Positions 1 to 64,000 of a DNA stretch of 64,000 nucleotides are shown here, piece by piece. The notes beneath the pieces were generated by a model that saw only the letters and a list, made by a program, of their open reading frames with translations, had not been told where the DNA came from and searched no databases. Both the position numbers and the translations under genes were made by a program. This DNA comes from Escherichia coli. GTDB lineage: Bacteria > Pseudomonadota > Gammaproteobacteria > Enterobacterales > Enterobacteriaceae. The stretch is from NCBI RefSeq assembly GCF_044647545.1, contig NZ_CP172818.1; one strand, given 5' to 3'. The first letter of the stretch is position 1. Every line of letters begins with the position of its first letter.

Positions 1-440
1 ATTGCCCCCAGCACACCATAAATCAGGCTACCGGTCATAAGCTGGACCACCGTACCCGTAATGGCGTAGTGCCAGTAATTGTAAATATCGACGTTCATCG
101 TTTTGGTCAGACGGGTGACCAGCATGGCGACATTGAGAAGAAAAATAACTGGGATAATCATGGCGCCAATGGCTGTCGCATAACCAACGCCGGAGGCAGG
201 GCCTGCGCCAACGTCAAAGACATGCAGGGCTAGGCCGAAACGCTCAATCATCACTTTGATAGGGGGACTGAGGCTGTCGATCGCCATGACGATCACCAGT
301 CCCATACCGACAAAACCAATCCCAACCGTTACCCCTGCCTTAATCGCCTGCAGCCAGGGGATGCGGAAGATAAGGCCAATCACGATCATGATGATAGGGA
401 CGAAAACGGTACCGCCGAGAGACAGGATGTAATCAAACAT
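1..440 (-). CDS. sgcC: PTS sugar transporter IIC component SgcC, N-terminal part only (gene runs off the window start)
   Basis: Reverse strand translates MFDYILSLGGTVFVPIIMIV... from ATG at 438-440; RBS AGGAGG at 445-450 (minus); followed by sgcB and sgcX as in K-12. Confidence 0.85.
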   Translation of the reverse strand, partial: MFDYILSLGGTVFVPIIMIVIGLIFRIPWLQAIKAGVTVGIGFVGMGLVIVMAIDSLSPPIKVMIERFGLALHVFDVGAGPASGVGYATAIGAMIIPVIFLLNVAMLVTRLTKTMNVDIYNYWHYAITGTVVQLMTGSLIYGVLGA

Positions 441-451
441 AATGCCTCCTT

Positions 452-730
452 TTATTGAGTTAACAGAGCCTTGATTTGTTGTTTTAACGCGTCGTCGTTG
501 ATCCCTGTGAGCAGGGCGGCGCCATTAAGCGTAGGGATGCCGTAATCACTGTTGGTTCGCATGGAGGTTACAATAAGGTCCATACCGTTACAGTTAAGAG
601 GGATCTCATTCAGACAGCATTGGGCGGTAGTGGCTGAAATGCCCTGTTCAGTCAGGAACTCTTGCAGCTTGTGTGCAATCATGGTTGAAGTCGACATGCC
701 GGTACCGCATGCCACAAGGATCTTTTTCAT
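452..730 (-). CDS. sgcB: PTS galactitol-like IIB component
   Basis: 92-aa ORF MKKILVACGTGMSTSTMIA... with the IIB Cys-phosphorylation motif; ATGA overlap with sgcX stop. Confidence 0.9.
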   Translation of the reverse strand: MKKILVACGTGMSTSTMIAHKLQEFLTEQGISATTAQCCLNEIPLNCNGMDLIVTSMRTNSDYGIPTLNGAALLTGINDDALKQQIKALLTQ

Positions 731-1848
731 AATGGATGTGCCTCTTGTGTAGTGCCTGAATCAGGCTCAACGGGGAAATGTGCTGCTGACATACCTGCCA
801 GAGCGGTCAATAGGCGGATGCAATCAGTCAAATCACGCAGGCTGGCAACCTCCGCCGGAGAATGGGTATAGCGACAAGGAATAGAGAGACTGGCGCAGGG
901 AATACCATCCTGCTCAACCTGGATATAACCGGTTTCTGTTATCACGCCGGGAGCCACTTCTCGCTGCACCGGAATGTTGTGTTCAAGAGCCGTCTGTTCC
1001 AACATCCGTATCAGGCGAGGAGGCGTGATTAATCCGGCCAGCGTTCCCCGACCATGGTAGTTCAGGCAGGTGATCCCAACGCCCTGATTAATCCTGACCT
1101 CGGAATAATCGTGTAAATCAGGGGTGTCACACGATGGAGTGATATCAATACCAATCGCCAGGTCAGGTTTTACACGGCGTAATACGGGAACAATGCCGCG
1201 GATATTAAATTCTTCCTGTACCGAAGCCACCAGATAAACGGCGATATCAAGCTCCATAGTACTGATAGCATCCGCTACACCGAGCAGGGCAGTACAGCCT
1301 AGACGATCGTCTAGTGCTTTACTGCACACCAGATCGTTTGCCAGGAGTTGCGGCGGGTTATACAGAGTGACAGGCGTACCGACCTGAATGCCCATCCGTA
1401 TAGCGTCGTCTTTGTCTTTGGCACCAATATCAATCCACAGTTTGTCGACAGAAGGTGACTGCGTGCGCTCGTCGCCTTTGGCAAAGTGGTAGGACTTAAT
1501 GCCGATACACCCCATGACTGGCCCTTTGTCCCCGGTGAGGGTGACGATGGAACCAGCCATAGTGACCTGCGCAGGACCGCCTACGCGTTCAAAGCGTAAA
1601 AATCCAGACGGCTCTATTTTGCGCACCATAAAACCGACTTCATCCATATGCGCAAAAATCATCAGTCGCAGCGCATCGGGTTTATCACTACCGTAGCGCG
1701 CGACGACATTCCCAAGCCTGTCTCGCCAGACCTCTTTTGCCTGACGCCTGAATTCGCACAGCATGACGTCAGCGACAGCGTTTTCGTGTCCTGAAATCGC
1801 ATTGTGCTGCAAAAGCGAGAACAGGGTTTCCTGCACAGAAAATGACAT
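727..1848 (-). CDS. sgcX: M42-family aminopeptidase/endoglucanase-like protein SgcX
   Basis: ORF 727-1878 opens at GTG; the ATG at 1846-1848 (MSFSVQETLF...) has a GGAG RBS and gives 373 aa. Confidence 0.85.
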   Translation of the reverse strand: MSFSVQETLFSLLQHNAISGHENAVADVMLCEFRRQAKEVWRDRLGNVVARYGSDKPDALRLMIFAHMDEVGFMVRKIEPSGFLRFERVGGPAQVTMAGSIVTLTGDKGPVMGCIGIKSYHFAKGDERTQSPSVDKLWIDIGAKDKDDAIRMGIQVGTPVTLYNPPQLLANDLVCSKALDDRLGCTALLGVADAISTMELDIAVYLVASVQEEFNIRGIVPVLRRVKPDLAIGIDITPSCDTPDLHDYSEVRINQGVGITCLNYHGRGTLAGLITPPRLIRMLEQTALEHNIPVQREVAPGVITETGYIQVEQDGIPCASLSIPCRYTHSPAEVASLRDLTDCIRLLTALAGMSAAHFPVEPDSGTTQEAHPL

Positions 1849-2633
1849 AGCTATCTCCGTAGACCGTAAAACAATCACTCGTTGAGCGTTTTATAGGCGC
1901 AGACTGGTCGAATAATTGTGAGAACGTTCACGTGAAAACGCGCAAAGCTGAACAAATAAAAAATTATGTGAGCCGAGTGGAATAAAAGCGCTCAACGTTT
2001 GTGAAAGTTACGGGCTGGAGAGACCAGTGATTATGGTTGAAATAATGAGGATGAATAAAACGCGGTAACTGTTATAGCACCACTTTGTTGCAGGACGCTC
2101 CCTCTTCATTACGTCCTGCACGTGGATACCCCAGCATCTCCATCAGCGGATCTTAGAATGTAATGGCGCGTGGCAGGTCGTTGGTTCCCAGCATAATGTA
2201 AGAAAACATCGGATCTCCTGAATAGATTCAGAGGGAGTATAGATAATCAGCTCAAATCACTCTCCGCTTTATGAGCCCAGGCTGGCATTGCCGTCAGATA
2301 ACGTTTTGCACGCTTATGTGCTTCCTCCGGGCCGACTTTTTGCCAGGAATCAAGGAAGCTGGCTAAACCTGATACCGCTTCTTCCCAGGGTTTGAGATTG
2401 CCGTTGCTGTCGCTGCATTACGCACAATATTGATCACTGGCACTGTGTGCATCTGGTGCCGACATCGGCATTCCGCAAGCCTGACAGAACTGTTCATGTT
2501 GTGACATATGATGCTCCTTATGGTGACATCTTGATTAATAAACATACTGAATATGTATTGTGCAGGTGATACATCAGATCAAAGCAAAGGTAAAGCCTCG
2601 ATATTTCCAGCCAGAAATACCGGGAACCTGTTG

Positions 2634-3380
2634 TTACCGGGCGATGAGTGCGAACACGCCCCAGCCAAAGCATTCCCGCGCGTAGGTCACGTAGCGTTTC
2701 GGCGCGATGTTTAGTTCGGCCCTGACTTCGGCGGCGAAGTCATCGTCAGGATTCGCTTCCAGCCAGCGGCGCATGGTCAGCCATTTTGCGGCTTCATACC
2801 GGTCCCAGCCTTCCTGGTCTGCCAGTACCATTTCCACCACGTCATAGCCGAGATCGTCGAACGCTCCGACAAGTCCTGGCAGCGTCAGGAAATCGCTTGT
2901 CGAGCTGACGCCGCAGGCCTGGGCTATTTCTTCTGTTGCTGGTAGCTGACGCCAGTAGGGTTCGCCGATAAGCATGATCCCGCCCGGTTTCAGGCTTTGC
3001 GCTAGCAGCTCCTCCGCCCCGGCAAACCCACCGGCAATCCATGTCGCGCCGACGCAGGCCGCCACGTCACATTTTTCATTTGCGACGTAACCGGCCGCAT
3101 CGTTATGAATAAAATGTACGCGTTCGCTGACGCCGAGTTCTTCCGCGCGACGCTTTGCCTGCGCGGTGAAGAGCGAACTCATGTCGATGCCAGTCCCCGT
3201 AATGCCATGATCCCTGGCCCAGGTGCAGAGCATCTCGCCCGAGCCGCTGCCGAGGTCAAGAATGCGGGTGCCCGGCTTCATGCGCAGCACGCGACCCAGC
3301 GTGGCGTACTTCTCTTCGGTGAACGGGTTATGGATGCGGTGTTCACTTTCGCTGATGGTAAAAATACGTGGGATATCCAT
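2634..3380 (-). CDS. yjhP: SAM-dependent methyltransferase (KpLE2 remnant)
   Basis: 248-aa ORF with methyltransferase motif ILDLGSGSGEM; position matches K-12 yjhP. Confidence 0.85.
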   Translation of the reverse strand: MDIPRIFTISESEHRIHNPFTEEKYATLGRVLRMKPGTRILDLGSGSGEMLCTWARDHGITGTGIDMSSLFTAQAKRRAEELGVSERVHFIHNDAAGYVANEKCDVAACVGATWIAGGFAGAEELLAQSLKPGGIMLIGEPYWRQLPATEEIAQACGVSSTSDFLTLPGLVGAFDDLGYDVVEMVLADQEGWDRYEAAKWLTMRRWLEANPDDDFAAEVRAELNIAPKRYVTYARECFGWGVFALIAR

Positions 3381-3435
3381 TATTTAATTCCTGTTATTGG
3401 GTTAAGCCTTAAAAAGGACACAACAAGATTGTTAT

Positions 3436-3981
3436 TCACGTCAGTGCTCCGGTTTCATCAGGGTCTGCGCACCGGATGTGGCCGGTCAGGGTCATGGGCT
3501 GAGCGGTGAGTGATTGCATCATCCAGCAGGCTTTGTGCTCCTCCGGGATGGGATAAGGTGCCGGATAGCCTTTGTCTCCGGCACAGGGTTCGAACCCATG
3601 TCGGGGGTAATAGGTGGCGTGGCCGAGAACAAAAACCGTCTGGCAGCCCATCAACCTCAGGTGCTCGATGCCAGTGCGTATCAACCGTCCTCCCACGCCC
3701 ATCCCTTGGTATTCCGGTATGACCGCCAGGGGAGCGAGGATGTGCATCAACGGTGAATCCATTTCTCCTTTGAAGGTTGCCCGGGTAAATAAAATATGCC
3801 CGACGGCTTTGCCTTCATACCGGGCTAGCAGCGATAACGCGGGGCGCGCGCTTTCATCCTCAAGTAAAGAGGCCACTAAATCGGCTTCTTTGCTGAAGCC
3901 AAATGCGCGGGTTTCGACTTCCCGGATATCACTGGCATCACTTTTATCTGTGATATGAAAAGTGAAGTGGTGTACTGTCAT
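3436..3981 (-). CDS. yjhQ: GNAT-family acetyltransferase, cognate antitoxin partner of TopAI
   Basis: 181-aa ORF, GNAT-like; immediately downstream of yjhX on the same strand. Confidence 0.85.
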   Translation of the reverse strand: MTVHHFTFHITDKSDASDIREVETRAFGFSKEADLVASLLEDESARPALSLLARYEGKAVGHILFTRATFKGEMDSPLMHILAPLAVIPEYQGMGVGGRLIRTGIEHLRLMGCQTVFVLGHATYYPRHGFEPCAGDKGYPAPYPIPEEHKACWMMQSLTAQPMTLTGHIRCADPDETGALT

Positions 3982-3992
3982 AGAAACTCTCC

Positions 3993-4250
3993 TTAGCGAT
4001 TATCGAGCTGAGCGCGAACTTTATTCAGCTCGGTGGTGTTGATTCGATAGGGCTGGCCATTGACGGACTTGATAAGTTTTTTGGTTTTGAGTTTTTTGAA
4101 GACGGCGAGCGTGCAGTCGGTCAGCAACAGCCCTTCGCGGCTGTAGCATTCAACGGAAGTGACGCGGCCTGAAGAATCGCGGACGTGCGCAATACGTCTA
4201 CCTTTAGCGAGAACGTGTAAGGTATGTTGTTCCTGACGGGATAAATTCAT
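3993..4250 (-). CDS. topAI: Topoisomerase I inhibitor toxin TopAI (YjhX)
   Basis: 85-aa [28 protein letters not shown]...; small toxin-sized gene upstream of yjhQ. Confidence 0.8.
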
Positions 4251-4740
4251 ACTGAAGAACCTATTTAATCATCATGTGCAAAACGTGCAAACACACCGCG
4301 GTGTCCGCATTCGATTTCGGCGCATTGATAATCAGTCCGGCCTGAAAAGGTCGGGGAACTGATTATCGGATGATTACATTCTCCAGCATCAAAGCCTCGG
4401 GTTGAGTTGAAAGGTATTTACGGAGCGAATATTAACACGTAGTTATAGGAGGGATATGTTTCAGTAGAAAAAGTGTGATGTACTTTGGAAATTGAATGCC
4501 AACCCATTTACTGGAAAAGGCAGATGACACTGACGAATGCATGTTGAAGTACGCCTGAAATGGCCTCATCGGCTTTTCCCTTCGGGAGATTATTCTCCTT
4601 TTGTTAAATCCAGAACATAAATATGCTCACCCATCTTCGATGCTTGAAAAATTGAAGCCAATCCTGATAAGTAATTTTTTTGAAAGGGTATTTTCCGGAT
4701 TCACACCGGCTTTGATGAGTGAAAAACCGTTCTCTTTTAT

Positions 4741-4959
4741 TCAGTCAATCGTGGCGGTAATTGCTTCAATTGCATATCCCTGGCGAGCATAAGCGGGACT
4801 GATGGTATAGCCGAGCCAAAACACATCGCATTGCTGACGTAAATAGATATCACCAATCAAAACCTGCGTCATTTGTTGACAATGGCCAATTGAATATCGC
4901 GAGCAAGTGTAAGAACTCCCAGCAAGACCCTGTAAATAATTCTGTGTAACTGCCCACGA
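4741..4959 (-). pseudogene. 3' fragment of a GNAT (RimL-like) acetyltransferase gene, no plausible full-length ORF
   Basis: Minus-strand translation ...MTQVLIGDIYLRQQCDVFWLGYTISPAYARQGYAIEAITATID*; closed by an in-frame stop at 4960-4962; below the 60-aa ORF-track cutoff. Confidence 0.35.
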
Positions 4960-5035
4960 TTAAAGGTGGTCGCTCAGGCGGTCACCGTATTCGATAATAA
5001 ATGGGTCTGGAAAAAGTGCAGCATCTGGCAGCGTA

Positions 5036-6228
5036 ATGCAGGTAGCCCAGTTCAACTCTCACTACCAGTATGATCCCAAGTTCGAGCGCGGAATGTATCT
5101 GTATGAGCATCGTCGCTGTTTCAATAACATCATCGACTACTGTAACTCACTTTGCTATCACGGTAAGTTGCAGCCTAAAAGAGGGATGGAAAAAGGACGA
5201 TTTTCCCCGCAATGGGATATTTACATATTGATGGTAGAGGCATGAAGCCAAATGGAGGGAGCCGTCATAACCCTCTTGAAGCTGAAACAATAGCAGCATG
5301 GCTGGTGGCACATAAGGATGATATAGAGCGCCATTACGGGGAACCACTGTACAAAGTTGTTGGTGTTGTGACGCCATTTTCGGCGCAGGTTAATGCTATC
5401 AAAATGTCATTGCGTAAGCTGGAAATTAATGGCAAAGACGAGCAGGGTTTACTGACAGTGGGGACTGTGCACTCCTTGCAGGGGGCGGAAAGGGCGATTG
5501 TTCTCTTTTCTCCTGTCTACTCAAAACATGAAGATGGCAGGTTTCTTGATAGCAACAGCACTATCCTCAATGTTGCTGTCTCACGCGCTAAAGATAGTTT
5601 TCTGGTATTTGGCGATATGGACCTTATCGAGATGCAGCCCGCATTTTCGCCGCGAGGGTTATTGGCAAAATATCTCTTTTCTTCAGATAATAATGCGTTG
5701 CAATTTGAGTTTCAGAAACGACAGGATTTAATTTCCGCACATACACAAATTTCAACGCTGCATGGTGTGGAGCAGCATGATGAATTTTTGAACAAGACTC
5801 TTGCCGGAGCTCAAAAGAAAATAACGATTATTTCCCCTTGGTTATCCTGGCAAAAAGTGGAGCAAACGGGATTTCTGGCATCAATGGCTTTGGCCCGTTC
5901 CCGGGGCATTGATATTACCGTGGTGACGGATAAAAACTGCAATATAGCGCATGTCGATGATGATAAGCGTCAGGAGAAACAACATCTGCTGAATGATGCT
6001 GTTGAAAAGCTCAATAAGATGGGTATCGCTACGAAATTGGTTAATCGTGTTCACAGCAAAATTGTGATTGAGGATGAAGAACTGCTGTGTGTCGGATCTT
6101 TTAACTGGTTCAGTGCTACACGGGAAGATAAGTATCAACGATACGATACGTCTTTGGTGTACCGTGGTGAAGGCGTAAAAAATGAAATAAAGGCAATATA
6201 TGGTAGTCTGGATCAACGTCAGCTTTAA
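5036..6228 (+). pseudogene. yjhR: Frameshifted, 5'-truncated SF1 helicase C-terminal domain fused to a PLD-like (HxK) nuclease domain
   Basis: ORF 5036-5245 (..[11 protein letters not shown]..) continues in another frame as ORF 5212-6228 (..[15 protein letters not shown].., ..[20 protein letters not shown]..); no helicase N-terminal motifs upstream. Confidence 0.7.
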
Positions 6229-6810
6229 ATGTGATGAGCCGTTCATGATACAGGAGTAGTAAAGGGCATATTTTACCAATGTTAAGGCGACTTTCCGTTT
6301 TATTGCGAGTCGCCTTTCCTGATTATAAATCTTATTGTTTACCTAATCATTTTCCTTTGCATAATGCGCCTGGGATTAATGGCGGGTGCTTTTAGGAATG
6401 AAAGAAAATGCAAGCAATAATATAATAATGGCCTAATTTCTTTGAACATCATTAAGCATATCATCATCGTCTATTTGCCAGAATCCGTCGACTTATAATC
6501 GCCAGAACGGCATATCAGGACGGTGCTGCGAACGCTGTGGCCCAAAACGTTCCAGTAAACTGTGTAGATGTTCGTAGATTTCCGAGCCATAATCGAAAAG
6601 GCGCGGATGTCTATTAAGGCATCCGGCTAATCTGTAAGCAATAACAACGGTTTATGCGGTGCGCGTTTTTCACCCTTGTGCCAGATTATTATATTGGCAA
6701 TTGCCTGCTGTTCGAGCCCGCAAGTGAAGAGATATTACCTTGATCTCATTTGTTTTTTGTTGTCTACTCTGAGAACGAACAAGGACATCCCCCATGAATA
6801 AACTCCCCGC

Positions 6811-10136: not shown

Positions 10137-10883
10137 AGATCAAAAATCACGCAATCCATACAACAAAACCAGATTTGCAATTCGTGTCACAAAATATGTC
10201 GATCTTTTTCTAAGAGGAAGATGCCATGTGAAGCCAGACGAACACTTGCGGTGGTCTTCAAAAACTAAAGATATTCTTTTAAATATCTGTTTTATAAATA
10301 ATTTATTTAGAGTCTAAATAAGGGAAGCTTTGTAAGCTAACTCAGTGAGCTTGGTGAAAATAAGTGTTTACCCGCCATCAGGCTTAGCATAATTCTCATC
10401 ATGAAATATGTTTCCTGGTTTGTGGCTTGTAACTGGTCACTCCTGAAGCCGATCTGGAGAGGCTTGTTGATGTTGGTGTTTTCAGGGTGATGCCTCACTT
10501 AGTTTGTTTGCCGTATCGCCCGGCGAACAGCTGTGATTGAGGAAGGTTTAAGTCGTAGTGACCAAAGCCATATTTACCAACGGATGCAGATGAAAAAATC
10601 GTTTCCTGCTTTCCCCCATATCTCCATGATAAAAAGGAATGTAACAATCTCATGGTCTAAACTGACGAACCAGCCAGGAATAATCGCTAGGGACCTAAGA
10701 ATTAGCATGATAATAGCCACTAAGAAATTACTGCGTTCCATGAAATAGCCATTTTGTGGCAAATGGAGTTGACTAATAATGTCATATGTGAGACGGCTAG
10801 TTGAGCGAATATTAAATTTTGCTGAATTTTTTATGTTGATTTTACTTGTTACAGAACATATCACATGATATATAGATAATAAG

Positions 10884-11544
10884 AGAAGACAGCGCCGGGG
10901 GCCCGCGGCGCCCGCTCCCAGCGCGGCGGGGGCGGGGGGGGGATATAAGGGAGCCTCGTCCCACACCAGCAAAGGGGACGCGGCTCGAGCCCAGCGGGAA
11001 GGGGCGCGGGGAACGTCCGAAGGCGTCATACGCGTAAAACAGCCAGCGCGCGCGATGCGCACATCCCACGTTCGTCCATTCCGCGCAGGACGTGACGACG
11101 CCGGCGTTGGCGGGTTACCGCGCGGCGGGCTGCGGGGCGTTGAGGAACGCCCATAATGGCGGGCGTGCGGCTCCAACGTTCGGCTCTGTTTGGGCTGGTG
11201 CGTACCGGGTTGAGAAGCGGGTAAGTGAACGCGTTGCCGTTTTACGGCAGTGAGAGCGAGTAGCGCCCGCGCGCGGGGGGGGCGGCGGGGCGCGGCCGGT
11301 GTCCCCGGCGCGGCGCGGGTTCGTGGAGGCCACGCGCCAGTGCGGGAGTGGGCCCGGCATGCGAACGGCCGCACTGGGGGCATTCAATGACGACCTTCTC
11401 GGTTCGTGGTGGAGAGGGGGGGACGGTGGGCAGGGCGGCGGGGCGCGGCCCGGCGGGGCCGCGCACCGGGGGGGGGGGGGGGGGGGGGGGGGCGCACCAC
11501 CCCGCGTGCTGCGGGGCAGCGGTGGGCGGCCCCTCTCTCGGGAA
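10884..11544. other. Non-native GC-rich block with a 32-nt G homopolymer occupying the position of fimB-fimE-fimAICDFG and most of fimH; probable artefact or engineered scar, not a gene
   Basis: Abrupt switch at about 10884 from AT-rich nanC-fimB intergenic DNA to high-GC sequence with G runs (10920-10940, 11273-11281, 11469-11502); ends where the fimH reading frame resumes. Confidence 0.8.
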
Positions 11545-11826: not shown

Positions 11827-11887
11827 AACAAAGCGCACTTTGCGACAATCCGAACAGAGCCCGCCATTGGCAGGCTCTGGTGTTCTT

Positions 11888-17424: not shown

Positions 17425-18099
17425 TTATTTACCAATATAATTCCATTCACCATTTTTTAATTCAAACAGTTCTGGAAGAGATGACGGTTGCAGAGTCATA
17501 CGTTTGAGTGGTGCATTTTCATCACCGGGATAGGCTTCTATACCAATTATTGGGTCATTACCCAACTCAATATTAGCATTAAGTAATGCGGCAAGGGCGA
17601 ATCCGGAAGAATTTGCTACCCCTGTTACCGTCATTATCTGATCAATATAGATATCAATCCTTGGCTGCTCATTGGTCCATCTTTTTGCCTGAGAAGCTGG
17701 AAGGGTTGAAATATATCCTATCGTGGTTCCGGCATAACCAGGAACATTGCAACCAGGGCCTAATGTTATTTCATGAACTGTATAGTCCTCAACAGGATCG
17801 AAAGGGCCTTTCATAAATAAATTTAGCCGTAATCCTTTTGCTAACTCTGTGGCAGCATGCGCCTTTTTACATATACCACCATATATTTCGTCTAAAGCTG
17901 AGGTGATTTTCAAGTTTCGATAGAGCATACGTCCTGTTGTTGTAATACCATTGAATTCTCTGCATGTTTCTGTCACATAATTAAATGGCCAGGACTCTTT
18001 ACTAATATCAAGTTTTCTAATTTCGACAACGCTTTTTCTATCGTAATTATGGTTATTGCCACGAGCAAGAGGCGGAAGATAGATATTTTCCGTATCCAT
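17425..18099 (-). CDS. yjiC: Uncharacterised protein YjiC (N-terminus possibly cut by an in-frame stop)
   Basis: 224-aa ORF from ATG at 18097-18099; the frame stays open upstream to a TAA at 18175-18177. Confidence 0.6.
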   Translation of the reverse strand: MDTENIYLPPLARGNNHNYDRKSVVEIRKLDISKESWPFNYVTETCREFNGITTTGRMLYRNLKITSALDEIYGGICKKAHAATELAKGLRLNLFMKGPFDPVEDYTVHEITLGPGCNVPGYAGTTIGYISTLPASQAKRWTNEQPRIDIYIDQIMTVTGVANSSGFALAALLNANIELGNDPIIGIEAYPGDENAPLKRMTLQPSSLPELFELKNGEWNYIGK

Positions 18100-29175: not shown

Positions 29176-30363
29176 TCACTGCTCCTCTGCCAGCTCGGCA
29201 GCCTGATGTTGGCGCACGCGATTAAGCAATCCCGCCAGGGTGAAAACGACGATAACGCCCGCCACGACGGCTAACAGATGAAACGGCAAGCGACCGCCGT
29301 TAAACCACAGCCACCGGCCGATTTCGACCGAGACAGACATCACCATCAGGATCACCATATTCAGCGATGCGGAGACGGTCCCTTTCGGTAAGTTATTGGA
29401 AAACAGCGTAAAGCGGAATAAGGTCGGGAAGATCAAACCAATCCCGAAAGCATACAAACTGGTGCCCAGCACCGACCACAGCCATACGTGCGGTGACAGC
29501 AGATTGCCGATAATCAACAGCGCGAGGCCAACCAGTTGAATGGGTACGGCACGCCAGATAAAGCGCGGTTCGGTCGGATCTTTAACGAAACGCGCCACGA
29601 TGGCATTCGCGACAATCACCGCGCCGAACACCGGAACCTGTGTCCAGGCGAACTGCGAGGTCGTTAAGCCGCCTGCGTCAATCAGGATCACCGGCGAGAC
29701 AGCCACCCAACTCATCATTGGGATATAGCTTAAAGAGATGGTTGCTGCACCAAAGAGGAACTGCCGATTGCAAAAGACATTACGAAAATCGCGCAAGACG
29801 CTTTTGGCGCTAAATGAAACCGCGCCGCGCTTCACCGTCTCTGGCATCGCCAGCAGTAAGCCAACAAATGAGATAAAACCCATAATCGCAATGATGGCAA
29901 AAAGGACTTTCCAGTGTACAAAGTGCATCAGAGCTGCGCCGGAAAGCGGGCCGATAATCGGCGCAATCAGTACGATGGAGGTGATAATCGCCATCAACCT
30001 GATCCCTTTTGTCTGGCCGAACGCCTCCTGCACCGTGACATAACCAACGGTGGCAATAAAACAGATACTGGTGCCCTGAATTGCACGCGCGATAAGAAAC
30101 TGTGTCATAGACGTTGTGAACATTGTCGCAGCGCAGGCAAGGGTAAATATTAGCGCCCCGGTAATCAGCACCGGCCTGCGGCCAATCCTGTCGGAAAGCG
30201 GCCCCAGCAGCCACTGTAACGCCATACCGCCCGCGAGATAGAGACTGACGGCTGCCGGGGCCAGACTGACATCGGCATTAAAATCACGGACCACATTAAT
30301 GATCCCCGGCTGAATCAGGTCCGTCGACAGGTACGCGGCAAAATCATACAAAATCAACGCCAT
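29176..30363 (-). CDS. mdtM: MFS multidrug efflux pump MdtM; 5' end disrupted by the adjacent poly-G block
   Basis: Native-looking frame from ...[24 protein letters not shown]...; the ORF-track start (30453) lies in the G-rich block; first credible in-frame ATG is 30361-30363. Confidence 0.75.
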
Positions 30364-30376
30364 CGGGAAAAACAGC

Positions 30377-31205
<829 letters not shown>

Positions 31206-31332
31206 AGGACGCTGGTGCACTAATGACGAAACAAAGGAGGGGTTCTTCACGTTTGTGAAGGTGCCGAAACTGGATATGGACTATTGAGTGAAATGTCAGG
31301 CCGCAGATGCGGCGCCATCATCCGGCCCAAAA

Positions 31333-32552: not shown

Positions 32553-34703
32553 TTAGTGGTGCGAAGAGATCTTCACGCCGCCTTCCGGGATTGGAACGTA
32601 CGGTGTTTCTTTGTCAGTACGTTTGTCGCTGTTACGCACCGCAAGCCAGGTTTTGAAACCGTAGAAGATGATGCTGTACACCACAATCAGGAACAGAATA
32701 CTCAGACCTGCGTTGGTGTAGTTGTTCACAACGATGTGGTTCATGTTGGCAATCTGCTGCGCCGTCAGGTCAGTACCGTTAGCAATCTTCTCTTTGTACT
32801 GGCTTGCCATGTAGAAGAAGCCTTCCATCTGCGGGTTGGTGCTGAACAGTTTCAGGCCCAGCGCCCAGGTGGTGCAGATAAGCAGCCATACAGCCGGAAC
32901 AACAGTTACCCAGATGTATTGGGTGCGCTTCATCTTAATCAGCACAACGGTGCCCAGTACCAGCGCTACGGCTGCCAGCATCTGGTTGGAAATACCGAAC
33001 AGCGGCCACAGGCTCTTAACGCCGCCCAGCGGATCGACCACGCCCTGATACAGCAGGTAGCCCCACAGACCCACACAGCCCGCAGTACCGATGATACCGG
33101 CAACCAGAGAGTCGGTTTTTTTCAGGAACGGGATGAAGTTACCCAGCAGGTCTTGCAGCATAAAGCGGCCAGAACGGGTACCCGCATCCAGCGCGGTCAG
33201 GATGAACAGTGCTTCGAACAGAATACCGAAGTGATACCAGAAGCCCATGTCAGCCATCGGCAGCACTTTGTGGAACACGTGAGCGATACCTACCGCCAGC
33301 GTCGGCGCACCACCTGCACGGTTCAGGACAGAAGGCTCACCAATGTCTTTCGCGGTTTGCAGGATCTGCTCTGGCGAAATCACGAAGCCCCAGGAGCTGA
33401 CGGTCGCTGCCGCGTGTGCGGTAACGTCTTTCAGCTGCGCCATGATGATCGGCGCGTTCTCGCCACCCATTTCATGCAGGTTAGGCATGGTGATGCCAAG
33501 GCCAGCAGGCGGGGTGTTCATCGCGAAGTAAAGACCCGGTTCGATGATGGACGCAGCAACCAGCGCCATAATCGCCACGAAGGACTCCATCAGCATTGCG
33601 CCGTAGCCGATGAAACGCGCGTCGGTTTCATTAGCCAGCAGTTTTGGCGTCGTACCGGAAGAGATCAGCGCGTGGAAGCCAGATACCGCACCACAGGCGA
33701 TGGTGATGAACAGGAACGGGAACAGAGCGCCTTTCCACAGCGGGCCAGTACCGTCAATGTACTGGGTCATGGCAGGCATTTTCAGTTCCGGGTTCAGCAC
33801 CACGATACCCAGCGCCAGGCCGACGATAACGCCGATTTTCAGGAAGGTTGCCAGATAGTCGCGCGGTGCGAGGATCAGCCACACCGGCAGCAGTGCGGAA
33901 ACAAACGCATAGCCAATCAGCGCGAAGGTAATGGTGGTGTCTTTAAAGGTCAGTGCCGGACCCCAGTACGGATCGTGAGCAATCACGCCACCGAAGTAGA
34001 TAGAGGCAACCAGCAGCACGATACCAATGACAGAGACTTCACCCACACGCCCCGGACGAATAAAGCGCATGTAGATACCCATAAACAGCGCAATCGGTAC
34101 GGTTGAGCAAACGGTGAAGACACCCCACGGACTTTCGGCCAGGGCTTTAACCACAATCAGCGCCAGGACGGCGAGGATGATGATCATGATTAAGAAACAG
34201 CCAAACAGCGCGATAGTCCCCGGTACTGGTCCCATCTCTTCTTTGATCATCTCACCAAGAGATGCGCCATTACGGCGAGAGGAGATAAACAGCACCATAA
34301 AGTCCTGAACCGCACCGGCCAGCACGACCCCCGCCAGCAGCCACAGCGTGCCAGGCAGGTAGCCCATCTGCGCGGCGAGAACCGGACCCACCAGCGGACC
34401 AGCACCGGCGATAGCGGCGAAGTGGTGACCAAACAACACGTAACGGTTGGTCGGAACGTAGTTCAGACCGTCGTTGTTAATAACCGCAGGCGTCGCGCGC
34501 GTGGGGTCGAGTTTCATCACCTTCTGGGCGATGTACAGACTGTAGTAGCGATACGCCACCAGATACACCGATACAGAGGCGACCACGATCCACAGGGCGC
34601 TGACGTGCTCCCCCCGACGTAATGCAACTACCGCGAGGCAGAATGCACCGATGATTCCGAGAATCACCCAGGGTATGTGCTTGAATATCTTTTTAGTATC
34701 CAT
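32553..34703 (-). CDS. btsT: Pyruvate/H+ symporter BtsT (CstA family)
   Basis: ORF 32553-34718; ATG at 34701-34703 gives MDTKKIFKHIPWVILGIIGAF... (716 aa). Confidence 0.9.
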   Translation of the reverse strand: MDTKKIFKHIPWVILGIIGAFCLAVVALRRGEHVSALWIVVASVSVYLVAYRYYSLYIAQKVMKLDPTRATPAVINNDGLNYVPTNRYVLFGHHFAAIAGAGPLVGPVLAAQMGYLPGTLWLLAGVVLAGAVQDFMVLFISSRRNGASLGEMIKEEMGPVPGTIALFGCFLIMIIILAVLALIVVKALAESPWGVFTVCSTVPIALFMGIYMRFIRPGRVGEVSVIGIVLLVASIYFGGVIAHDPYWGPALTFKDTTITFALIGYAFVSALLPVWLILAPRDYLATFLKIGVIVGLALGIVVLNPELKMPAMTQYIDGTGPLWKGALFPFLFITIACGAVSGFHALISSGTTPKLLANETDARFIGYGAMLMESFVAIMALVAASIIEPGLYFAMNTPPAGLGITMPNLHEMGGENAPIIMAQLKDVTAHAAATVSSWGFVISPEQILQTAKDIGEPSVLNRAGGAPTLAVGIAHVFHKVLPMADMGFWYHFGILFEALFILTALDAGTRSGRFMLQDLLGNFIPFLKKTDSLVAGIIGTAGCVGLWGYLLYQGVVDPLGGVKSLWPLFGISNQMLAAVALVLGTVVLIKMKRTQYIWVTVVPAVWLLICTTWALGLKLFSTNPQMEGFFYMASQYKEKIANGTDLTAQQIANMNHIVVNNYTNAGLSILFLIVVYSIIFYGFKTWLAVRNSDKRTDKETPYVPIPEGGVKISSHH

Positions 34704-55848: not shown

Positions 55849-56922
55849 GTGGGGCAGCGAATACCTGTAACGCTTGGTAATATTGCGCCGTTGTCGCTAA
55901 GGCCGTTCCAGCCTGGACGAATAGCTCTGGTGTGCGAAGGCGGCGGGCAGCGTGGAATTTTCACAGCTGGCGTGCTGGATGAGTTTATGCGCGCGCAGTT
56001 TAATCCTTTCGATCTTTATCTCGGCACATCTGCCGGGGCGCAGAACCTCTCGGCGTATATCTGCAATCAGCCCGGTTACGCGCGCAAAGTCATCATGCGC
56101 TATACCACAAAACGCGAATTTTTCGATCCATTGCGCTTTGTCCGTGGAGGAAATCTTATCGATCTCGACTGGCTGGTGGAGGCCACCGCAAGCCAGATGC
56201 CGTTGCAAATGGACACCGCAGCGCGGCTATTTGACAGCGGCAAATCGTTTTATATGTGCGCCTGTCGTCAGGATGACTACGCGCCGAATTACTTTTTACC
56301 AACCAAACAAAACTGGCTGGATGTGATTCGCGCCTCCAGTGCAATACCTGGCTTTTATCGTAGCGGAGTGTCGCTGGAAGGCATTAATTACCTGGATGGC
56401 GGGATCAGTGATGCGATCCCGGTTAAAGAGGCGGCAAGGCAGGGCGCAAAAACGTTGGTCGTTATCCGCACTGTGCCGTCACAAATGTACTATACGCCGC
56501 AGTGGTTCAAACGCATGGAACGCTGGCTGGGTGACAGTAGCCTGCAGCCGCTGGTCAATCTGGTGCAGCATCATGAAACCAGCTATCGTGAGATTCAGCA
56601 ATTTATTGAGAAACCACCGGGCCAGTTGAGGATATTCGAAATTTATCCGCCGAAGCCATTACATAGTATCGCGCTCGGCAGTCGGATTCCGGCGCTGCGT
56701 GAAGACTATAAACTTGGGCGTTTATGCGGGCGTTATTTTCTGGCAACGGTCGGTAAGTTATTGACTGAAAAAGCGCCGCTGAGCCGCCATCTGGTGCCGG
56801 TGGTGACGCCGGAGTCGATCGTTATTCCGCCTGCACCCGTCGCCAACGATACGCTGGTTACCGAGGTGATAGACGCTCCACAGGCGAACGACCCGACATT
56901 TAACAATGAGGATTTGGCTTGA
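55849..56922 (+). CDS. yjjU: Patatin-like phospholipase
   Basis: ORF 55804-56922; GTG at 55849 with RBS AGGAAGG gives 357 aa; GxSxG motif GTSAG and N-terminal GGGQRG. Confidence 0.8.
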   Translation: MGQRIPVTLGNIAPLSLRPFQPGRIALVCEGGGQRGIFTAGVLDEFMRAQFNPFDLYLGTSAGAQNLSAYICNQPGYARKVIMRYTTKREFFDPLRFVRGGNLIDLDWLVEATASQMPLQMDTAARLFDSGKSFYMCACRQDDYAPNYFLPTKQNWLDVIRASSAIPGFYRSGVSLEGINYLDGGISDAIPVKEAARQGAKTLVVIRTVPSQMYYTPQWFKRMERWLGDSSLQPLVNLVQHHETSYREIQQFIEKPPGQLRIFEIYPPKPLHSIALGSRIPALREDYKLGRLCGRYFLATVGKLLTEKAPLSRHLVPVVTPESIVIPPAPVANDTLVTEVIDAPQANDPTFNNEDLA

Positions 56923-57803
56923 TTTGCCGTTTTATCGACACCCACTGCCATTTTGATTTCCCGCCGTTTAGTGGCGATGAAGAGGCCAGCCTGCAACGCG
57001 CGGCACAAGCGGGCGTAGGCAAGATCATTGTTCCGGCCACCGAGGCGGCAAATTTTGCCCGCGTGCAGGCGTTAGCGGAAAATTATCAACCGCTGTATGC
57101 CGCTTTAGGGTTGCATCCGGGGATGTTGGAAAAACATAGCGATGTGTCTCTTGATCAGTTACAGCAGGCGTTGGGAAGACGTCCGACGAAGGTGGTGGCG
57201 GTGGGGGAGATCGGCCTGGATCTCTTTGGTGACGATCCGCAATTTGAGAGGCAGCAGTGGTTGCTTGATGAACAACTGAAACTGGCGAAACGCTACGATC
57301 TGCCGGTGATCCTTCATTCACGGCGCACGCACGACAAACTGGCGATGCATCTTAAACGCCAAAATTTGCCACGCACTGGTGTGGTTCATGGTTTTTCTGG
57401 CAGCCTGCAACAGGCCGAACGGTTTGTGCAGCTGGGCTACAAAATTGGCGTAGGCGGTACTATCACCTATCCACGCGCCAGTAAAACCCGCGATGTCATC
57501 GCAAAGCTGCCGCTGGCATCGATGTTGCTGGAGACCGACGCACCAGATATGCCGCTCAATGGTTTTCAGGGGCAGCCTAATCGCCCTGAACAGGCCGCCC
57601 GTGTGTTTGCCGTGCTGTGCGAGTTACGCCCGGAACCCGCGGATGAGATTGCCGAAGTGTTGCTTAATAACACGTATGCGGTGTTTAACGTTCGTGGAGC
57701 CGAGCCGAAGCGCACGCACGCAGCACAACGAGCCCCTAGTCTGCCCTTCGTAAGCCGGATAAGGCGTTCACACCGCATCCGGCAGTCGACGCACAATGCC
57801 TGA
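56919..57803 (+). CDS. yjjV: TatD-family metal-dependent hydrolase/DNase with an apparent C-terminal extension into REP repeats
   Basis: TTG start overlapping the yjjU stop; MICRFIDTHCHFDFPPF...; TatD-like body ends near 57692, but the frame stays open to TGA at 57801-57803. Confidence 0.7.
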   Translation: MICRFIDTHCHFDFPPFSGDEEASLQRAAQAGVGKIIVPATEAANFARVQALAENYQPLYAALGLHPGMLEKHSDVSLDQLQQALGRRPTKVVAVGEIGLDLFGDDPQFERQQWLLDEQLKLAKRYDLPVILHSRRTHDKLAMHLKRQNLPRTGVVHGFSGSLQQAERFVQLGYKIGVGGTITYPRASKTRDVIAKLPLASMLLETDAPDMPLNGFQGQPNRPEQAARVFAVLCELRPEPADEIAEVLLNNTYAVFNVRGAEPKRTHAAQRAPSLPFVSRIRRSHRIRQSTHNA

Positions 57804-57953
57804 TGCGACGCTGACGCGTCTTATCATGCCTACAAGTCTGTGCCGAACCGTAGGCCGGATAAGGCGTTCACGCCGCATCCGGCAGTTGGCGCACAATGCC
57901 TGATGCGACGCTGACGCGTCTTATCATGCCTACAGGTCTGTGCCGAACCGTAG
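57754..57953. repeat. Tandem duplication (2 x 100 bp) of a REP-containing BIME unit
   Basis: Two near-identical 100-bp units starting at 57754 and 57854. Confidence 0.8.
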
Positions 57954-57957
57954 GCTG

Positions 57958-58821
57958 TCACAAATACAGCGCCGGAAATATCAACCGGCTCACCCCGTGC
58001 TCCCGTAACGCATCAGCCAATTGCTCAACGTCTTCCGGCGTGGCGCTCGCCCAGCTTTGCGCCTCGCCATACACGCCGTGGGCATGAAACGCGTTCAGGC
58101 GTACCGGAACATCGCCAAGTCCCTTGATAAACGCCGCCAGCTCATCGATATGCTGCAAATAATCCACGTGGCCTGGGATTACCAGCAAACGCAGTTCTGC
58201 CAGTTTGCCGCGCTCGGCAAGCAGACTAATGCTGCGCTTGATCTGCTGATTATCGCGTCCGGTTAGCTGTTGATGGCACGCGCCACCCCACGCTTTGAGG
58301 TCGAGCATCGCGCCGTCGCATACCGGGAGTAATTTTTCCCAGCCGGTTTCGCTCAACATGCCGTTACTGTCCACCAGACAGGTGAGATGACACAGTTGTG
58401 GATCATTTTTGATAGCAGTAAACAGCGCCACCACAAACGGCAACTGGGTCGTGGCTTCACCGCCGCTTACCGTTATCCCTTCAATAAACAGCACCGCTTT
58501 GCGGACGTGACTAAGCACCTCGTCCACGTTCATGGATTGCGCCATCGGCGTAGCGTGTTGTGGACACATCTTCAGGCAGGTATCACACTGCTCGCAGACG
58601 GCTGCGTTCCACACTACTTTGCTGTTAACAATCTGCAACGCCTGATGCGGACACTGTGGCACGCACTCCCCGCAATCATTACAGCGCCCCATTGTCCACG
58701 GATTGTGACAGTTTTTGCAGCGCAGATTACAGCCCTGTAAAAACAGAGCCAGACGACTGCCTGGCCCGTCAACGCAGGAGAAGGGGATAATCTTACTGAC
58801 TAAAGCGCATCTGCTGTTCAT
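57958..58821 (-). CDS. yjjW: Glycyl-radical enzyme activating enzyme (radical SAM, PflA-like)
   Basis: 287-aa ORF with Cys-rich motifs (..[12 protein letters not shown].., ..[12 protein letters not shown]..). Confidence 0.85.
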
Positions 58822-60343
58822 GGCTTATCACGCGCGACTGGCGTTCCAGAATACGAGTGTTGCGTGCGGCTTCTTCTCCCAGCCAGGTGGTATTGGTACG
58901 TGAACCTTCGGCACGATATTTTTCTAAATCCGACAAACGCACCATATAACCGGTAACGCGAACCAGATCGTTACCGCTGACATTGGCGGTAAATTCACGC
59001 ATTCCGGCTTTAAAGGCACCGAGGCAAAGCTGTACCAGCGCCTGCGGATTACGTTTGATGGTTTCGTCGAGCGTCAAAATGTCGCTGATGCCGGAATAAT
59101 AATAAGCATGATGCGGGGCGACAGTTTGCAGATGGGTGATCGGATCTGGCTCATCGCCATACGGCAAACGCGCGCCCGGCGTGGTGCCGATATCGGAACT
59201 TATCCCCGACTGTGCGTGTAGCATGGCGCGATTTTGCCAGCCATATTTCACGGGGGTATTGGCGACAAACTCCGCCAGTTGCGCGCTGATGCGATAACCC
59301 ACTTCATTTGCAGCGGCTTCTTTACCGTAACGTGCGGCAATTCCTTCTTTCTCACACAACAAGTTAACCGCTTCTGCCAGTCCGTACATGCCAAACATTG
59401 GCACAAAACGTTCAGGGTTAATCAGCCCTTCTTTCACCAGGAAGCTATTCTCAAAGAAGTGTGATTGTTGATAGAGGAATTCACACCGCGCATCGATGAT
59501 GGCGATTTGCTGCTGGCAGTAGTGCGGTAGAGTGCGCGTAAAGAAATCATCCAGCGATTCACTGCGCTCGGCAATGGCTTTCAGGTTAAGGCGTACCAGC
59601 GTGCTGCCACCACCCGCCAGCGGCAGTGAGTTGTAACAGCTCACAATCCCGTAGCCCCCTTTTGTGAAAATTTTATCATGCACGGGACCGTTGGCGATGT
59701 GCGGTTTGCTACATTCACAGATGTTTTTCGCCACTTCCAGCAGCAGGTCATCAGGGGTGATTTCAGGATCGTAGATAAAAGTCAGGTTCGGTGAAACCTG
59801 CTTCAGCTCTGAATCTGCCCGTAAAATCGCACGGGTAATGGGCGAATCAGACGGGCCAATATTGGCGTGCATAAAGGCATCTGGCAGGGTTCTATCGAGG
59901 TAACGCCAGAAACGTTTTATTCGAATATCGATCTCGTTTTGTGTTAGAATTCTAACATACGGTTGCAACAACGCATCCAGTTGCCCCAGGTAGACCGGCA
60001 TCGATGTGACCGAAGGAACGTGGTGGTAAAGAATGGTCAGCAGAGAGAGTGCGTCATCAAGATCTTTTGCGCCTTCCAGCTCCAGCCATTCGGAACCGTT
60101 GGCCAAAAAACGGGCGTAATCGGGTAAGACATAGCGCGGTTTATACGGCGCATGACCTTCAAACATATCGCAGATTACACCTTCATCCAGCGCGCGGCGG
60201 GCTTCGGCAGGAAGCTGTGGGTAAGGCAGATTGTTTTCTGCTTCCAGCGCCAGAAAATGGCGCTTCTGCTCCGGGCTAAGTACCGGACTGGTGACAATTT
60301 GCTGGCAACGTTGTTGCAGTGCATTTTCATGAGAAGTGGGCAT
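58793..60343 (-). CDS. yjjI: Uncharacterised glycine-radical-enzyme-like protein (DUF3029)
   Basis: ORF 58793-60472; ATG at 60341-60343 ([17 protein letters not shown]...) with RBS AAGGAA gives 516 aa; 3' end overlaps yjjW. Confidence 0.8.
59663..59678. promoter_or_regulatory. Candidate DeoR operator OE (degenerate)
   Basis: tgtgaaaattttatca, 12/16 match to TGTTAGAATTCTAACA, 278 bp upstream of O1. Confidence 0.4.
59941..59956. promoter_or_regulatory. DeoR operator O1 (deoP1), inside the yjjI coding region
   Basis: Perfect 16-bp palindrome TGTTAGAATTCTAACA. Confidence 0.75.
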
Positions 60344-60541
60344 CTTCTGTTCCTTTTTATGCCGAAGGTGATGCGCCATTGTAAGAAGTTTCGTGATGTT
60401 CACTTTGATCCTGATGCGTTTGCCACCACTGACGCATTCATTTGAAAGTGAATTATTTGAACCAGATCGCATTACAGTAATGCAATTTTGTAAGTAGATT
60501 TCCTTAATTGTGATGTATATCGAAGTGTGTTGCGGAGTCGA

Positions 60542-60557
60542 TGTTAGAATACTAACA
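60542..60557. promoter_or_regulatory. DeoR operator O2 (deoP2)
   Basis: TGTTAGAATACTAACA, 45 bp upstream of the deoC ATG and 601 bp from O1; TGTGA-containing CRP/CytR-type motifs lie just upstream (60440-60540). Confidence 0.75.
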
Positions 60558-60601
60558 AACTCGCAAGGTGAATTTTATTGGCGACAAGCCAGGAGAATGA
60601 A

Positions 60602-61381
60602 ATGACTGATCTGAAAGCAAGCAGCCTGCGTGCACTGAAATTGATGGACCTGACCACCCTGAATGACGACGATACCGACGAGAAAGTGATCGCTCTGTGT
60701 CATCAGGCCAAAACTCCGGTCGGTAATACCGCCGCTATCTGTATCTATCCTCGCTTTATCCCGATTGCTCGCAAAACGCTGAAAGAGCAGGGCACCCCGG
60801 AAATCCGTATCGCTACGGTAACTAACTTCCCACACGGTAACGACGACATCGAAATCGCGCTGGCAGAAACCCGTGCGGCAATCGCCTACGGTGCCGATGA
60901 AGTTGATGTGGTGTTCCCGTACCGTGCACTGATGGCGGGTAACGAGCAGGTTGGTTTTGATCTGGTGAAAGCCTGTAAAGAGGCTTGCGCAGCAGCGAAT
61001 GTACTGCTGAAAGTGATCATCGAAACCGGCGAACTGAAAGACGAAGCGCTGATCCGCAAAGCGTCTGAAATATCCATTAAAGCGGGTGCTGATTTCATCA
61101 AAACCTCTACCGGTAAAGTAGCAGTGAACGCGACGCCGGAAAGCGCGCGCATCATGATGGAAGTGATCCGTGATATGGGCGTAGAGAAAACCGTTGGTTT
61201 CAAACCGGCGGGCGGCGTGCGTACTGCGGAAGATGCGCAGAAATATCTCGCGATTGCAGATGAACTGTTCGGTGCTGACTGGGCTGATGCGCGTCACTAC
61301 CGCTTTGGTGCTTCCAGCCTGCTGGCAAGCCTGCTGAAAGCGCTGGGCCACGGCGACGGTAAGAGCGCCAGCAGCTACTAA
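60602..61381 (+). CDS. deoC: Deoxyribose-phosphate aldolase
   Basis: ORF 60578-61381; ATG at 60602 with RBS AGGAGA gives [29 protein letters not shown]... (259 aa). Confidence 0.95.
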
Positions 61382-61423
61382 GCTGCCTTTTGCCAGAGGG
61401 TGGATGCTATGGGTCGAGTACCC

Positions 61424-61463
61424 CTGTAGGCCTGATAAGATGCGTCAGCATTGCATCAGGCAA
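61424..61463. repeat. REP element
   Basis: ctgtaggcctgataagatgcgtcagcattgcatcaggcaa. Confidence 0.7.
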
Positions 61464-61520
61464 TAACAACATCCGCCATCTGGCAACAACGCCTTCAAAC
61501 TTATTCCACGGGAGGTTACC

Positions 61521-62843
61521 TTGTTTCTCGCACAAGAAATTATTCGTAAAAAACGTGATGGTCATGCGCTGAGCGATGAAGAAATTCGCTTCTTTATCAA
61601 CGGCATTCGCGACAACACTATCTCCGAAGGGCAGATTGCCGCCCTCGCGATGACCATTTTCTTCCACGATATGACAATGCCGGAGCGTGTCTCGCTGACC
61701 ATGGCGATGCGAGATTCAGGAACCGTTCTCGACTGGAAAAGCCTGCATCTGAATGGCCCGATTGTTGATAAACACTCCACCGGCGGCGTCGGCGATGTGA
61801 CTTCGCTGATGTTAGGGCCGATGGTGGCTGCCTGCGGCGGCTATATTCCGATGATCTCCGGTCGCGGCCTCGGCCATACTGGCGGTACGCTCGACAAACT
61901 GGAATCCATCCCTGGCTTCGACATCTTCCCGGATGACAACCGTTTCCGCGAAATTATTAAAGATGTTGGCGTGGCGATTATCGGCCAGACCAGCTCGCTG
62001 GCTCCGGCGGATAAACGTTTCTATGCGACCCGCGACATTACCGCAACCGTGGATTCCATCCCGCTTATCACCGCCTCGATCCTGGCGAAGAAACTGGCGG
62101 AAGGTCTGGATGCGCTGGTGATGGACGTGAAAGTCGGTAGCGGCGCGTTTATGCCGACCTACGAACTCTCTGAAGCCCTTGCCGAAGCGATTGTTGGCGT
62201 GGCTAACGGTGCTGGCGTGCGCACCACCGCGCTACTCACCGACATGAATCAGGTGCTGGCCTCCAGTGCCGGTAACGCGGTTGAAGTTCGTGAAGCGGTG
62301 CAGTTCCTGACTGGTGAGTATCGTAACCCGCGTCTGTTTGATGTCACGATGGCACTGTGCGTGGAGATGTTGATCTCCGGCAAACTGGCGAAAGATGACG
62401 CCGAAGCGCGCGCGAAATTGCAGGCGGTGCTGGACAACGGTAAAGCGGCAGAAGTCTTTGGTCGTATGGTAGCGGCACAAAAAGGCCCGACCGACTTCGT
62501 TGAGAACTACGCGAAGTATCTGCCGACAGCGATGCTGACGAAAGCAGTCTATGCTGATACCGAAGGTTTTGTCAGTGAAATGGATACCCGCGCGCTGGGA
62601 ATGGCAGTGGTTGCAATGGGCGGCGGTCGCCGTCAGGCATCTGACACCATCGATTACAGCGTCGGCTTTACTGATATGGCGCGTCTGGGCGACCAGGTAG
62701 ACGGTCAGCGTCCGCTGGCGGTTATCCACGCGAAAGACGAAAACAGCTGGCAGGAAGCGGCGAAAGCGGTGAAAGCGGCAATTAAACTTGCCGATAAAGC
62801 ACCGGAAAGCACACCGACTGTCTATCGCCGTATCAGCGAATAA
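61521..62843 (+). CDS. deoA: Thymidine phosphorylase
   Basis: 440-aa ORF from TTG at 61521 with RBS GGGAGG; [21 protein letters not shown]... Confidence 0.95.
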
Positions 62844-62873
62844 CGGTATACTGATCTGATCATTTAAATTTGA

Positions 62874-64000
<1,127 letters not shown>

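Follow-up and report, generated by a model that had tools for sequence, protein, structure and literature searches.

An apparent 34-residue extension of Escherichia coli YjjV into a REP array is probably an artefact of the source assembly

Results

Gene content and repeats at the yjjV locus

The window analysed here is a 64,000-nt stretch of E. coli contig NZ_CP172818.1 (assembly GCF_044647545.1). Near its right end lie yjjU and yjjV, a REP array, and then yjjW and yjjI on the opposite strand. The apparent yjjV open reading frame (56919–57803, + strand) begins at a TTG codon that overlaps the yjjU stop, the same position at which PGAP places the yjjV start in relatives, and it encodes 294 residues. 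Membership of the YjjV/TatD family of metal-dependent hydrolases is supported by full-length family-model matches above the curated cut-off: the NCBIfam equivalog model for YjjV, PRK11449, scores 567.9 bits (cut-off 481) over residues 1–258 of a 259-position model, and Pfam TatD_DNase (PF01026) scores 250.6 bits over residues 6–257, the full profile. These boundaries agree with an earlier sequence-only reading of this DNA, which had placed the end of the TatD-like body near residue 258. The nucleotides that encode the genuine body (56919–57697, +) are 100% identical to those of strains WP4-S18-ESBL-09, DFL.5, and MS14385.

The C-terminus departs from that of the family, in which the protein has 259–260 residues and ends in ...FNV(P/RG). 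As had been read previously, codon 260 of the 294-aa frame is GGA (57696–57698); it follows CGT at codon 259 (57693–57695). After Gly260, the predicted protein continues for 34 residues, AEPKRTHAAQRAPSLPFVSRIRRSHRIRQSTHNA, of which eight are Arg or Lys, four are His, and one is Glu. Residues 261–294 lie outside every family model in Pfam and NCBIfam. The frame enters the first of two BIME units and ends there at an in-frame TGA (57801–57803, +), the path through the REP/BIME array that the sequence-only reading had traced. In a collection of 15 billion proteins, the exact 294-aa product is recorded from a single NCBI contig of 4,499,902 bp, and no other E. coli was found to carry a 294-aa YjjV.

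The REP array occupies the gap between the end of yjjV and the end of the convergent downstream gene yjjW (57958–58821, − strand). It contains two 100-nt BIME units (57749–57848 and 57849–57948) that are 95% identical to each other and that match the Rfam model RF02564 (naRNA4) at 69.6 bits (57753–57830) and 79.1 bits (57853–57930), both above the gathering score of 59.5. The array is, by this measure, REP/BIME sequence of the multi-copy naRNA4 type, and the insert described below is not. This BIME element is present in multiple copies in every E. coli genome, with a median of 36 places per genome; the RF02564 (naRNA4/CssrE) model evidently detects REPs of this kind generally. Across lineages, the intergenic array (57737–57957 in the window, compared with six other loci) ranges from 112 to 515 nt and contains approximately one to five BIME units. 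Both the YjjV/TatD-family hydrolase and the BIME units are of an ordinary type, and no new kind of element is present.

Natural gene ends of yjjV in E. coli

Two forms of the yjjV end are observed in E. coli. In the first, found in O157:H7, ST131, and E272, the protein has 260 residues and ends in ...NV(R/S)G*, encoded by GGG TAG, and the REP stem starts 14 nt beyond the stop. In the second, found in K-12, RM14723, and YL3, the protein has 259 residues and ends in ...NV(P/L)*, encoded by CCG or CTG followed by a TAG that is fused to the REP, such that the stem starts at the stop itself. The K-12 length of 259 residues that the sequence-only reading had given is correct: the coding sequence of the K-12-derived strain ET12567 has 780 nt, encodes 259 residues, and ends in ...NVP*. 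When aligned with the window, K-12 yjjV reads CCG TAG.

The relatives of the window carry the 260-aa form. Over the 7.7 kb upstream, the identity to the complete genomes of MS14385, WP4-S18-ESBL-09, DFL.5, 4973, EC11, and E17 is 100%. A 783-nt yjjV encoding 260 residues is annotated in MS14385, WP4-S18-ESBL-09, DFL.5, and MS6198, and in these four strains, as in O157:H7 and ST131, the gene ends in CGT GGG TAG, so that codon 261 is the stop.

Extended alleles of natural origin also exist, and have 275 (for example, WP_059320968.1) or 276 residues within the same protein cluster. The 275-aa allele has the tail ...NVRGSLPFVGSIRQSAHNA and originates from a slip of GGG to GG just before the TAG, as seen at positions 2270–2330 of a locus from GCA_018456985.1, which reads CGT GGT AGT TTG. 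The 276-aa allele is a K-12-type end with one additional base before the TAG. Both read through the REP in the same frame as the window ORF and terminate at the TGA in AATGCCTGA, which is equivalent to the stop used in the window. These alleles, represented by 13 protein records, are found in at least 24 contigs; among 5,426 complete genomes there are only three examples, all from one farm clone. The GG form of the 275-aa allele is called in strains 33F4, 32F4, and 33E. A separate 373-residue protein, encoded on a Logan contig of 1,720 nt, leaves the YjjV family at ...PADE and continues for approximately 110 unrelated residues (RPGLVFVQSAGNEGDKAW...); this contig may be chimeric or may carry an insertion.

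A 39-nt insert shifts the yjjV reading frame

Comparison of the window with four complete genomes (MS14385, WP4-S18-ESBL-09, DFL.5, and MS6198) locates the origin of the extension. Both flanks are 100% identical in all four, and where these genomes have a single G, the window has 39 nt, AGCCGAGCCGAAGCGCACGCACGCAGCACAACGAGCCCC (57698–57736, +). The relatives read CGT GGG TAG TCTGCCC, and the window reads CGT GG[39 nt]TAG TCTGCCC, which corresponds to a net gain of 38 nt, with 39 nt in place of the last G of GGG. Because the net gain is 38 nt, the native TAG of the 260-aa allele, which is retained at 57737–57739 (+), is out of frame. The insert is composed of 17 C, 11 A, 11 G, and no T (72% G+C); being T-free, it cannot interrupt any of the six frames with a stop, which permits read-through. 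As judged from these alignments, the extension is the product of a multi-base insertion and frameshift and not of a point mutation. Relative to WP4-S18-ESBL-09, the segments 31327–57697 and 57737–64000 are 100% identical and the insert is the sole difference in 32.7 kb.

No source for the insert was identified in the sequences searched. Within the window, the longest exact match is 11 nt, which is at chance level. In the 5,426 complete E. coli genomes, the insert is absent and just chance-level 22/24-nt matches are returned (E = 1–5). Searches of PLSDB plasmids and INPHARED phages gave no convincing match, the best being 86.5% identity over 37 nt of a high-GC Arthrobacter plasmid (E = 0.04). 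No exact 36-mer or 22-mer of the insert occurs in 100,044 species genomes, and no exact 25-mer in JGI metagenomes. Around 57698–57736 there is no target-site duplication, terminal inverted repeat, or direct repeat. A transposable-element insertion or footprint was rejected on the basis of the missing duplication and inverted repeats and of the lack of a match in E. coli genomes, plasmids, and phages. A templated insertion or duplication was likewise rejected, with no donor of 12 nt or longer in the window and none in the 5,426 E. coli genomes. The insert does not behave as an RNA element either, with a fold z-score of −0.71 and no Rfam match.

The composition of the insert was compared with that of two blocks of corrupted sequence found elsewhere in the window (described below). 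An order-1 Markov score of junk against normal sequence, a weakly discriminating test, ranks the insert within the top 3.3% of 39-mers from normal sequence. A sharper separation is given by a feature that was chosen after the insert had been seen: 39-mers of 71% G+C or more in which A or T is missing account for 8 of 62,183 normal windows and for 344 of 1,534 in the junk blocks. Derivation of the insert as a degraded copy of neighbouring sequence is unsupported. In alignments that used a substitution matrix learned from a corrupted IS1 element in the same record, the neighbourhood scored 14–18, compared with 13.6 ± 2.7 (maximum, 23.6) for the background.

Genuine sequence can also lack T over stretches of this length. 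At 34307–34411, two natural runs of 42 nt that are T-free and G+C-rich lie 63 nt apart and are 100% identical to the relative. By coordinates, both map to btsT, on the opposite strand.

Corrupted sequence elsewhere in the same record

Two blocks of plainly corrupted sequence are present in the window. The first (10880–11544) consists of a corrupted copy of IS1 amid G/C-rich junk. At this site, the closest genome has an intact IS1 with its target duplication (776 nt). Relative to that copy, the IS1 in the window has lost many A and T residues and carries substitutions that almost all produce G or C (A>G, 24; T>G, 21; C>G, 19; A>C, 11); only 4 of 154 G residues are altered. A 269-aa ORF read from this block is recorded from the same single contig as the 294-aa YjjV. 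The second block (30382–31326) is 945 nt of G-rich junk that includes approximately 140 nt of near-pure poly-G (30900–31040). It overwrites the first ~9 codons of mdtM, and because the 5' end of this gene is lost, the ORF at 29176–30453 has a spurious N-terminus. The right part of the block (31199–31326) is a degraded mrr–yjiA junction with 88% identity. WP4-S18-ESBL-09 has brnTA, an IS1, and a gene fragment at this site (1,824 nt).

Single-base differences accompany these blocks. Relative to WP4-S18-ESBL-09, one C is deleted at 11843 (GCC to GC) and another at 17525 (CACCC to CACC), the latter within yjiC (DUF2686). Neither deletion is found in the 5,426 complete E. coli genomes, in which the best full-length match is 98.4%, and both probably arose as indel errors in the source assembly. 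Over ~56 kb, the remaining differences from WP4-S18-ESBL-09 amount to these two C deletions and one mismatch located 4 nt from the second block, with zero clean SNPs. This pattern of private differences, which comprises indels and junk without a clean substitution, is the profile of assembly error and not of divergence.

At the left edge of the window, positions 1–6807 (sgc/yjhPQR) are 99.9% identical to K-12, have a normal composition that is not that of junk, and have no counterpart in the corresponding stretch of WP4-S18-ESBL-09 that was examined. The gene content thus differs between these otherwise near-identical genomes.

Discussion

The most likely explanation for the 294-aa YjjV is an error in the source assembly. 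We place the probability of this reading at roughly three in four, an estimate drawn from assembled sequence rather than from raw reads and from databases that cover a portion of E. coli isolates. According to this proposal, 39 non-biological bases would have been placed exactly where unique yjjV sequence meets a multi-copy REP/BIME array, and would there replace one G of CGT GGG TAG. Such bases may have been introduced during assembly, gap closing, or polishing. With 38 bases added, reading would move into the −1-equivalent frame and miss the true TAG, and an ORF finder would continue to the TGA at 57801–57803. The true junction would then be CGTGGGTAGTCTG, without the 39 nt, and the strain would in fact make the 260-aa YjjV (WP_038432251.1) found in its clonal relatives. 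The insert is private to one assembly, and within the window that same assembly has two junk blocks and two private single-base deletions.

Several observations count against an artefact. Each junk block stands in place of repeats and is G-rich on the + strand, whereas the insert has been added cleanly between perfect flanks, is C-rich on that strand, and contains no homopolymer run. Its Markov score reaches only the top 3.3% given above, and the alignments do not support its derivation as a degraded copy of any window sequence. The existence of natural YjjV extensions in the same frame also makes an extended protein biologically possible.

The main alternative is a real insertion private to this strain, perhaps generated at the BIME boundary by illegitimate recombination or by repair, that is either untemplated or derived from an unknown donor. 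If this were the case, yjjV would be truly frameshifted in one isolate and would encode a hydrolase with a 34-residue basic tail derived from the insert and the first REP, and ribosomes would enter and translate through the REP hairpin, where stalling would be expected. The perfectly preserved flanks and the intact REP array downstream are consistent with such an event. REP/BIME borders are also naturally variable at this locus, in both intergenic length (112–515 nt) and type of gene end, and the natural 275- and 276-aa proteins (at least 24 contigs and three complete genomes) indicate that a tail of this kind is tolerated. Set against these points, no donor is present in any database searched, the insert occurs in one assembly only, an assembly with proven junk and private indels, and its composition resembles that of the junk. 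Moreover, since there is no SNP relative to the closest genome in ~56 kb, a 38-nt non-homologous insertion would be the sole genuine mutation in that interval. We consider a real insertion unlikely, at perhaps one chance in five. If it were true, the allele would join the 275- and 276-aa alleles as evidence of recurrent stop loss at the yjjV stop beside the REP.

Far less probable is a stop-free tag or barcode that was deliberately engineered into the 3' end of yjjV. The lack of T, the absence of stops in six frames, and the lack of a natural match would suit a designed sequence, but the insert leaves the native stop in another frame, no recognisable tag, scar, marker, or cloning site is present, the lineage is one of clinical and environmental isolates, and T-free, G+C-rich stretches are common in the junk of this record. 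The sequence-only reading was borne out in regarding the extension as a variant or an error, but its proposed cause, a single-base change or base-call error at 57696 that turned TGA into GGA, is rejected by alignment with nine E. coli alleles and is the least credible explanation: GGA is indeed one substitution from TGA, but no examined allele stops at codon 260 with a TGA, the relatives read GGG TAG or CCG/CTG TAG, and the native TAG persists at 57737–57739, displaced by a net 38 nt.

The 294-aa extension is thus probably not real biology, and it should be neither annotated as a new YjjV isoform nor counted as a stop-codon-loss mutation. Because the record is corrupted at 10880–11544 and 30382–31326 and carries private indels, other strain-specific features taken from it need read-level confirmation.

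The corrupted sequence can be compared with known G-biased, low-quality sequence. One example is poly-G from the 'no-signal' calls of two-colour Illumina chemistry; a literature search returned no useful citable description of poly-G artefacts. The junk blocks share with such sequence the poly-G, changes almost only to G and secondarily to C, and the preservation of G; the insert shares with it the lack of A on its G-rich strand. Unlike a simple model of poly-G at read tails, the second block is G-rich on the + strand on both sides, and the insert has no homopolymer. The insert also differs from REP/BIME elements, with no match to Rfam or to a repeat family.

In both the relatives of the window and K-12, yjjV belongs to the class of genes with a REP within 15 nt of the stop codon. 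For this class, ribosome stalling and reduced translation have been reported (Liang et al. 2015, as summarised in PMC12306157). Located at the REP or 14 nt away from it, the yjjV stop is naturally lost in rare lineages through one-base slips that yield 275- and 276-aa proteins reading into the REP, an observation that could be of minor interest to work on REP-dependent ribosome stalling. These natural alleles resemble the window in that a TAG just ahead of the REP is shifted out of frame, reading continues in the same −1-equivalent frame, and the tail ends in ...IRQS(A/T)HNA. They differ in that they arise from one-base slips and are seen in many independent assemblies, whereas the window has 39 orphan bases in one assembly only and a YjjV tail that is 19 residues longer than that of the natural extended alleles.
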